This document shows positions 18,172 to 19,504 of a stretch of DNA of 64,000 nucleotides, piece after piece. Under the pieces are notes generated by a model. The model made no database searches. It had not been told where the DNA came from and saw only the letters and a program-made list of their open reading frames with translations. How positions within the stretch are numbered: the first letter of the stretch is position 1; every line of letters begins with the position of its first letter. The position numbers were made by a program, and so were the translations under genes. Source of the stretch: a plasmid; NCBI RefSeq assembly GCF_056712565.1, contig NZ_JBWXXM010000002.1; one strand, 5' to 3'.

Positions 18172-18570
18172 GTGATAACACAAACAGGCCCCTACAGCGT
18201 AAGGATTGTGATGGACGATAAAGAGCAGTTTACGAATCTTGTGGCAAAGCATGCCTCCGGACTCACCGAAGAGCAGCTGGCCGGGTACGATGCCTGTTCC
18301 CTGGATGGTGAATGCGTCACGCCTTCATACGAGGTTTTCCGGGGGTATCGTACCCGCCACACACTGGATGAATTTCTGGAGATGGCCATATCGCTGAATG
18401 CCATCCACCCGGATGAATATTTAACGGATATGCTGCTGAAGCCTCATGAGGTGATCGGCGCTCTGGCCGATGAAGGCGACCAGCTGAACAACGCCACCCC
18501 GGTTTATTTCTTTCCGGATACCGGCGTCTATGCAGCGGCCGTTAGTGAAACCCGGGTGCTCGATGCCTAG
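18172..18570 (+). CDS. Hypothetical protein (132 aa)
   Basis: ORF only; alternative start MDDKEQF at 18211. Confidence 0.35.
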   Translation: MITQTGPYSVRIVMDDKEQFTNLVAKHASGLTEEQLAGYDACSLDGECVTPSYEVFRGYRTRHTLDEFLEMAISLNAIHPDEYLTDMLLKPHEVIGALADEGDQLNNATPVYFFPDTGVYAAAVSETRVLDA

Positions 18571-18671
18571 CTTTGCTGGCCATGCTACCCGGCGAACTGG
18601 TAACGCGGCCGTTGGAATTGCACCGGCCGGATACGAATTTAACCGATCCCGTGGCGGGAAGGCTATCAGAG

Positions 18672-18924
18672 TTGCATGTCCTCATCCCTCAAGCCCCCTG
18701 CCAGGCCCCAACGTGCTGTCAGGCTTCGCCTGATTCCCGATCTGCGCCGATACTTCAGCCGATAACTTTTTGTTTTCTTTTTATTTTCTTCCCATTTCCT
18801 CAAAAATCGCGGGCGGCGTGGACAGGGCACCATTGCCGCATGTGGGGTCTTAATAAGGGCAGGGTGGTCAGTTTTGCTCGATGCCATGGGTAGGCCCTCC
18901 CCTTCATGGGATGAGGACATGCAA
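18672..18924. repeat. Pair of 17-bp perfect inverted repeats bracketing about 220 bp
   Basis: TTGCATGTCCTCATCCC at 18672-18688 and its exact reverse complement at 18908-18924. Confidence 0.5.
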
Positions 18925-19076
18925 GTAAGCTAACTATCTGAAATGACGAAGGTTCATTTGGTGAATGTCGCTTCATATTAATGTTGTGTCACTTATGATC
19001 GTATGTAGCTGGTTGCAAAGAGGAGCGATGAGACAATAAAGTTGTATCGCTAACAAGATTTATGCTGCCACATAGT

Positions 19077-19177
19077 AACAGCCTAAAAGTTGTACGCCCT
19101 ATTTAACAGCTTTTAGGCTGTTAATTTGATATTACAGCTTTTAGGGTGTATGTTTAGGAAACAGCCTGCAAGGTGTA
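19077..19177. promoter_or_regulatory. Putative hipBA promoter/operator region with repeated ACAGC(C/T)T half-sites
   Basis: Perfect 13-bp IR AACAGCCTAAAAG (19077-19089) / CTTTTAGGCTGTT (19110-19122) plus two related copies before the hipB ATG at 19204. Confidence 0.35.
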
Positions 19178-19203
19178 TCAGAGGAAACTACTGAGGCCAG
19201 CTT

Positions 19204-19500
19204 ATGATCAATAATGATTACCCGTTAAACACGCTCAACCAGCTGCGTCCCTTGCTCATTGGTTTTCGCAAGGCGAATGGCCTGACGCAAAAAGACCTGT
19301 CCGAAAGGTTAGGCGTCACTCAACAGACATACTCACGTCTGGAAGCCAACCCTGCCAGTGCGAGCATTGAACGGCTATTCAAGGTGTTTTCCATCCTGGG
19401 CGTAAAAATCAGCTTCTCCTCGGCAACCACCTCTTCAGAGAGGAAGCAGACGGAAGAAATGCTTAAATCAAACTCACCTGCACGACAGGAGGATTGGTAA
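19204..19500 (+). CDS. hipB: HipB-like HTH (XRE-family) antitoxin
   Basis: ORF 98 aa; HTH segment (LTQKDLSERLGVTQQTYSRLE); immediately upstream of hipA with 4-nt gap. Confidence 0.75.
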   Translation: MINNDYPLNTLNQLRPLLIGFRKANGLTQKDLSERLGVTQQTYSRLEANPASASIERLFKVFSILGVKISFSSATTSSERKQTEEMLKSNSPARQEDW

Positions 19501-19504
19501 CGAT

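Follow-up and report, generated by a model that had tools for sequence, protein, structure and literature searches.

Four closely spaced palindromic dyads precede a hipBA gene pair in the window, by which we mean the whole 64,000-nt stretch of plasmid DNA that was analysed (Table 1). The two genes have the same orientation and are separated by 4 bp. Their naming as hipBA in an earlier sequence-only reading was borne out by the domain matches (HTH_3 for HipB; Couple_hipA and HipA_C for HipA) and by identities of 32% and 41%, respectively, to the K-12 proteins, the latter over 425 aa. The closest solved structures to HipB were those of E. coli HipB (E=1.4e-6), and HipA was far nearer to E. coli HipA structures (E=1e-100) than to S. 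oneidensis HipA (E=3e-21). HipA keeps the equivalents of K-12 S150 (autophosphorylated), of the catalytic residues D309 and D332, and of G22, P86 and D88 in the N-domain; the last three are G25, P91 and D93 in the plasmid protein, and mutation at these positions confers high persistence via weakened HipA-HipA dimerisation (PMC7758455). Both the kinase toxin and the HTH antitoxin features of a hipBA type II toxin-antitoxin system were found in the predicted proteins. A different plasmid-borne HipBA, from an IncA/C plasmid of Klebsiella michiganensis, is toxic, is neutralised by its own HipB, and stabilises its plasmid (PMC11487325). The RefSeq model of hipB (WP_024136327.1, 97 aa) starts at 19207, an ATC codon one codon after the in-frame ATG at 19204; the ATG, with GAGG 7 nt upstream, looks the likelier start.

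Table 1. Features of the hipBA locus (positions are those of the window)
Feature	Position	Strand	Basis and remarks
Site 1, most upstream dyad, ACAGC-CTAAAA-GTTGT	19078..19093	.	pattern match
Site 2, perfect palindrome, ACAGC-TTTTAG-GCTGT	19106..19121	.	pattern match on both strands
Predicted -35 hexamer, TTGATA	19126..19131	+	consensus scan; within the site 2-site 3 spacer
Site 3, ACAGC-TTTTAG-GGTGT	19134..19149	.	pattern match; fills the predicted -35/-10 spacer
Predicted -10 hexamer, TATGTT	19149..19154	+	consensus scan
Site 4, ACAGC-CTGCAA-GGTGT	19161..19176	.	pattern match; over the expected transcription start
Shine-Dalgarno-like GAGG	19193..19196	+	read from sequence; 7 nt before the hipB ATG
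hipB, 98-aa Xre-type HTH antitoxin, C-terminal Trp (...QEDW)	19204..19500	+	ORF; Pfam HTH_3, E=4.5e-15
hipA, 441-aa Ser/Thr kinase toxin	19505..20830	+	Pfam Couple_hipA, E=3.7e-21; HipA_C, E=3.6e-51

The 64-kb window consists of backbone from an IncHI2 plasmid, a group that ranks among the major carriers of mcr, ESBL and metal-resistance genes. The 2-kb surroundings of the array were found at 95-100% identity in 1,187 plasmid records from Escherichia, Salmonella, Enterobacter and others, most of them conjugative, and the hipBA module as such occurs on more than 1,100 sequenced plasmids. One annotated example, pSTM6-275, is of IncHI2A/MOBH type and carries tellurite-resistance genes upstream. 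Papers retrieved in our literature search list hipBA among the IncHI2 backbone genes. The nearest gene upstream of the array ends more than 450 bp away. The intervening 450 bp or so (18604-19054), which separate the upstream hypothetical gene from the hipBA module, carry no annotated feature in RefSeq; they hold only overlapping ORFs of mechanical look and a second promoter-like match, TTCATA-16-TATGAT, at 18972-18999.

Upstream of hipB the region reads ...gtAACAGCCTAAAAGTTGTAcgccctatttAACAGCTTTTAGGCTGTTaatttgatatTACAGCTTTTAGGGTGTAtgtttaggaAACAGCCTGCAAGGTGTAtcagagg..., in which four 16-bp dyads of the form ACAGC-N6-GnTGT (core ACAG-N8-CTGT) succeed one another at start-to-start spacings of 28, 28 and 27 bp, with gaps of 11-12 bp and all sites upstream of the gene. 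Written with their flanks, the sites are (T/A)ACAG-N8-CTGT(A/T). The same block had previously been parsed as one perfect 13-bp inverted repeat with a 20-bp spacer plus two related half-site copies. The inverted repeat is there: AACAGCCTAAAAG (19077-19089) and CTTTTAGGCTGTT (19110-19122) are perfect reverse complements with 20 bp between them, and a repeat search extended the pair to arms of 23 nt with 87% complementarity. This long repeat exists, however, because site 1 resembles site 2 in reverse, and the parse into one repeat and two half-sites gives way to four complete 16-bp dyads. The two further copies are likewise present (19134-19149 and 19160-19177), but as the complete sites 3 and 4 and not as half-sites. 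Their placement, given as 30-130 bp upstream of hipB, agrees with a block that lies 27-127 bp before the ATG at 19204.

Clustering of this kind was far above expectation. The pattern ACAGC-N6-GNTGT was matched 6 times in the 64-kb window against 0.36 expected, a count reached in none of 100 shuffles; the four clustered sites account for five of these matches, since the perfect palindrome scores on both strands, and the sixth, at 62678, is solitary within a 269-aa ORF. A wider HipB regulon on the plasmid was considered and rejected: with up to one mismatch allowed, ACAG-N8-CTGT gave 33 matches against 21 expected, the sole cluster being that upstream of hipB, and the isolated matches at 62678 (ORF-internal) and 44591 look like chance. 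A candidate fifth site further upstream, ACAAG-ATTTAT-GCTGC (19053-19068), has a degenerate likeness to the others but, at 25 bp from site 1, falls out of phase with them. The R478-like lineage does not retain its left half, and it was rejected as probably a chance match or a decayed site.

A consensus scan predicted a promoter, TTGATA-17-TATGTT (9 of 12 consensus matches), interleaved with the array; the scan returned 2 promoter-like sites against 1.3 in shuffles. The predicted -10 hexamer begins with the last T of site 3, and site 4 begins 7 bp past that hexamer, at about +1.

Conservation upstream of chromosomal hipBA genes

The sequence-only reading had proposed aligning the regions upstream of homologous hipBA loci as a check. 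Chromosomes were scanned with one genome per species, which yielded 80 loci; 79 of these are full hipBA pairs with HipA 59-81% identical, and the remaining one (L077), a fragment identical to the window, was kept outside the set. The Enterobacterales are represented by Citrobacter, Serratia, Brenneria, Rahnella, Yersinia and others, and the Betaproteobacteria by Paraburkholderia, Caballeronia, Gallionella, Rhodocyclales and others. The check came out strongly in favour of the sites, both the motif and a 27-bp phasing recurring in the 79 chromosomal loci of these two proteobacterial classes.

Across the 79 loci, the 210-bp stretches at the hipB start held 136 exact copies of ACAG-N8-CTGT (8.25 per kb) and the other 313 kb held 3 (0.0096 per kb), an enrichment at hipB of about 860-fold. 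When one mismatch was allowed, at least two sites were found at 76 of the 79 loci: two at 12 loci, three at 38, four at 25 and six at 1. Successive sites were 27 bp apart in 147 of 168 cases, 28 bp in 10, and 54 or 55 bp in another 10. The equivalents of the window's sites lie near -125 (site 1, in Enterobacterales), -97 (site 2), -70 (site 3) and -43 (site 4). The sequence around the motif has diverged among the homologs. Apart from hipB and hipA, no gene is common to the 79 loci, and the distance from the array to the hipB start is nearly constant.

The motif also emerged from searches in which it was not specified. An unsupervised count of 4-mer dyads with gaps of 0-14 ranked TACA-N10-TGTA first (157 matches, 77 of 79 loci) and ACAG-N8-CTGT second, and base autocorrelation upstream of hipB reached 0.42 at lag 27 and 0.38 at lag 54 against a median of 0.26. 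The family consensus is an 18-bp dyad, T-ACAG-n-yTATAr-n-CTGT-A (a TACAGCTATAGCTGTA-type dyad), in which the information content of the eight core positions is inflated because the sites were selected on the core.

The promoter layout was traced less evenly. Of the 17 Enterobacterales loci, 15 carry a TAnnnT hexamer on the 3' edge of their penultimate site. A TTG-type hexamer stands ahead of this site in most Enterobacterales homologs, although -35-like hexamers are weak in many homologs. Overall TAnnnT was so placed in only 40 of 72 loci, so the promoter of the Betaproteobacteria may be positioned differently.

Comparison with known operators

E. coli HipB binds cooperatively to four TATCC-N8-GGATA operators (PMC3376134, PMC3920265), which in K-12 are spaced 28, 39 and 28 bp apart (PMC3376134, PMC4150777). 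HipA acts there as a co-repressor, and HipA dimerisation between DNA-bound complexes occludes the active sites (PMC3920265, PMC7758455, PMC6581861). The plasmid locus resembles K-12 in having four dyads upstream of hipB, in the 5-N8-5 geometry of its sites (TACAG-N8-CTGTA), and in its 27-28-bp spacing between neighbours, which matches the 28 bp of O1-O2 and O3-O4. In both, an Xre-type HipB with a C-terminal Trp is encoded just upstream of the HipA kinase. The third K-12 operator is abutted by TTGACT, and TATAAT lies between the third and fourth; in K-12 as on the plasmid, one site thus falls between -35- and -10-like hexamers and the next after the -10-like hexamer, as judged from the visible TTGACT and TATAAT only, since a scan of the K-12 hipBA promoter returned no consensus promoter.

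The two loci differ in the half-site (TACAG on the plasmid, TATCC in K-12), in the uniformity of the spacing (28/28/27 bp against 28/39/28), in copy number (2-6 within the plasmid HipB subfamily, four in K-12) and in the junction of the genes, which lie 4 bp apart on the plasmid and overlap by 1 bp in K-12. The earlier expectation that the sites would depart from the E. coli operator consensus was correct, and neither promoter carries the motif of the other. No TATCC-N8-GGATA with up to two mismatches was found at 18420-21225 of the window, and no ACAG-N8-CTGT upstream of K-12 hipB. Elsewhere in the window, E. coli-type operators were sought and dismissed, the 29 two-mismatch matches being at chance level (20 ± 5). 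The missing TATCC-N8-GGATA rules out the E. coli specificity class, but not the kind of operator.

Shewanella oneidensis MR-1 offers a second comparison. It too has four evenly spaced palindromes for a HipB homolog, with hipB and hipA a few bp apart; its operators are GTGTA-N6-TACAC with 34-bp gaps (50 bp start-to-start), the fourth lying inside hipB (PMC4150777). The pentamers are nearly the same letters (GTGTA/TACAC in S. oneidensis, CTGTA/TACAG on the plasmid), but the S. oneidensis half-sites face the opposite way and are closer together than in TACAG-N8-CTGTA. The gaps differ as well, the plasmid sites being 11-12 bp apart and all upstream of the gene, in contrast to the 34-bp gaps and intragenic last site of S. 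oneidensis.

More broadly, the plasmid locus shares with Xre-HTH type II antitoxins such as HigA the order of genes, with the antitoxin first, and palindromes that overlap the antitoxin's own promoter. One or two palindromes are usual in type II Xre-HTH systems. A phased array of at least four sites with a large kinase toxin as bridging partner is, to our knowledge, specific to hipBA. Our literature search, which was incomplete in coverage and retrieved the E. coli, Shewanella and Legionella operators, found no description of the TACAG-N8-CTGTA consensus or of its 27-bp phasing.

Variation among plasmids

R478-like IncHI2 plasmids and an IncHI1B plasmid are homologous to the window only from about 19055 onwards (near 1500 in the loci extracted from those plasmids), some 23 bp upstream of site 1. 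The position of this break indicates that the operator block is part of the hipBA module, which behaves like a cassette. The upstream neighbours differ: a hypothetical protein of about 130-143 aa in the window lineage, and a hypothetical gene of 1.3-1.4 kb in the R478-like and IncHI1B plasmids. Within 19077-19177, all 7 positions that vary among these lineages fall in dyad centres or spacers and none in the 40 half-site positions; the probability of avoiding the half-sites by chance is (61/101)^7, or about 0.03. Site 1, for example, has invariant half-sites between the IncHI2 and IncHI1B lineages and a variable centre (A19088G), and site 4 has unchanged half-sites and a centre that varies at two positions (C19166G, G19168A).

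Site number also varies among plasmids. In NZ_CP060679.1 (1657-1712 of the extracted locus), site 2 and its spacer (window 19104-19131) have undergone an exact 28-bp tandem duplication, giving five sites. This five-site variant, which spans 91 bp, was observed in 17 plasmid records out of some 1,160, from Salmonella and E. coli and on plasmids of 110-247 kb that include an IncF plasmid; the other listed records have the 63-bp span of four sites. A separate record, NZ_CP126870, matched only 18950-19015 of the query 18950-19520, which hints at a recombination junction there.

A more distant case is found on pCC23, an IncC plasmid of Enterobacter cloacae, which carries an orphan hipB of about 74% nucleotide identity. 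The DNA upstream is otherwise unrelated, but it holds two dyads 28 bp apart, ACAGC-ctatag-TCTGT and ACACC-ttacct-GCTGT (1913-1955 of the extracted pCC23 locus, in which the hipB homolog occupies 2001-2297). No hipA is annotated after this hipB homolog, and an IS1 element lies about 540 bp downstream. The pCC23 gene is an antitoxin-only remnant and may have retained its self-regulation.

Binding unit and presumed binder

The choice of binding unit requires care. As half-sites alternate at about 13 and 14 bp, the inside-out unit CTGT-N11-ACAG has to be weighed against ACAG-N8-CTGT. The first half-site of the arrays is ACAG and the last is CTGT; one period beyond the end, an orphan half-site was seen in only 4 of 76 arrays on the upstream side and 2 of 76 on the downstream side. 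The symmetry of the dyad centre (0.42) does not separate the two units, for the centre is as symmetric as the inter-site spacer (0.44), and the choice therefore rests on the array ends and on E. coli. Both support ACAG-N8-CTGT as the probable unit, the second by analogy.

The recognition helix reads TQQTYSRLE in the window HipB and KQATISNFE in K-12 HipB, and the subfamily sequence, TQQ(T/S)YAxLE, is highly conserved. Base 5 of the half-site tracks helix residue x, which is R45 in the window HipB: an Arg there is matched by C (84% of 120 half-sites), a Gln by G or T and a Tyr by A. Such covariation suggests direct readout of the base by HipB and marks it as a candidate specificity determinant, although it is confounded with phylogeny.

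Multiple dyads in the promoter region and sites conserved together with hipB are the features of a HipB operator array, and both were found here. We accordingly favour, with a probability of about 0.87, the reading that the four dyads are the operators through which HipB or HipBA autorepresses the IncHI2 hipBA promoter; from the comparisons above we infer binding, repression and bridging by HipA. The original proposal, that the repeats are candidate operators for a divergent HipB, is supported at the level of sequence.

It is very unlikely that the sites serve a protein other than HipB, such as a plasmid or host regulator or a partition/iteron-type or nucleoid protein. IncHI2 plasmids encode many regulators, the DNA between the sites is AT-rich, and it is from sequence that we infer the identity of the binder. 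Any such protein, however, would have to follow a motif that is found with hipB on chromosomes from Enterobacterales, Burkholderiales, Nitrosomonadales and Rhodocyclales, at loci with no genes in common other than hipB and hipA, that clusters nowhere else in the 64-kb window, and whose fifth base covaries with a residue of the HipB recognition helix. Less likely again is that the palindromes act as nucleic-acid structure, whether as a terminator or attenuator hairpin for upstream transcription or as an RNA or cruciform element. The predicted RNA fold is strong (-41.6 kcal/mol, z = -5.1), but a strong fold is expected because any array of similar palindromes folds. Site 2 followed by TTAATTTGATATT, a T-rich run, was flagged as terminator-like; against this, three of the four window sites would have a G-G mismatch in their 5-bp stem, the predicted start comes only after sites 1 to 3, and more than 450 bp separate the array from the end of the nearest upstream gene. 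The half-sites are moreover fixed and do not covary as stems would (ACA/TGT is 100% invariant across 246 sites), and a terminator would show neither strict 27-bp phasing nor a position fixed relative to hipB across unrelated contexts. Rfam gave no match above threshold; the sole sub-threshold match was to a miRNA model, at 19 bits against a gathering score of 72.

Least likely is a neutral origin, in which tandem duplication of a 27-28-bp unit produced the repeats as a by-product and they now serve no function. Such a duplication has evidently occurred, as the 28-bp event that persists in 17 plasmid records demonstrates, and site number ranges from 2 to 6 among homologs. Spacers and centres have nevertheless diverged freely, and the ACAG/CTGT cores and their phasing are kept down to 59% HipA identity, which argues for purifying selection on the cores and not for recent duplication.

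On the preferred reading, of an autorepression array bound by HipB, one HipB dimer would bind each dyad through its helix-turn-helix. Occupation of site 3, between the predicted -35 and -10 hexamers, and of site 4, at the expected transcription start, would exclude RNA polymerase, and hipBA would thereby repress itself; cooperativity would be contributed by sites 1 and 2. If the E. coli system is a guide, HipB-bound HipA would serve as co-repressor. In E. coli only O1-O2 and O3-O4 carry the spacing for bridging; in the plasmid array every junction does, so that HipA bridging may be possible in principle at all of them.

A further and tentative idea, which we regard as rather unlikely, is that the phased array of 2-6 sites nucleates a continuous HipA-HipB2-HipA chain, in which inactive toxin would be stored on the DNA and the gain or loss of units would act as a dial. 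If so, each gain or loss of a 27-28-bp unit would set the repression set-point and the threshold for toxin release, and the five-site variant would be one such change.

The plasmid array seems to represent a new specificity class within the well-known hipBA autoregulatory operator arrays, one that is mechanistically expected, and the current picture of hipBA regulation is unchanged by it. What it provides is a testable consensus, TACAG-N8-CTGTA at 27-bp phasing, for a large HipB subfamily in Enterobacterales and Betaproteobacteria, which can also serve as a cue for the annotation of hipBA promoters. The comparison with E. coli HipB, of equal geometry but with another half-site and another recognition helix, gives a handle on specificity determinants. 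Plasmids with four and with five sites offer a natural comparison for the effect of operator number on toxin-antitoxin expression and plasmid stabilisation.

A last observation concerns the HipB proteins themselves. Of the 79 HipB homologs, nearly all have the C-terminal W, but the length of the preceding tail is variable. In plasmid and Enterobacterales HipB the tail is about 30 residues long. Betaproteobacteria HipB, at up to about 200 aa, have very long, low-complexity linkers rich in Ala, Lys, Pro and Thr, which separate the HTH domain from a conserved C-terminal KK(R/K)E-x-W; the composition of these linkers is reminiscent of histone-H1-like DNA-binding tails.
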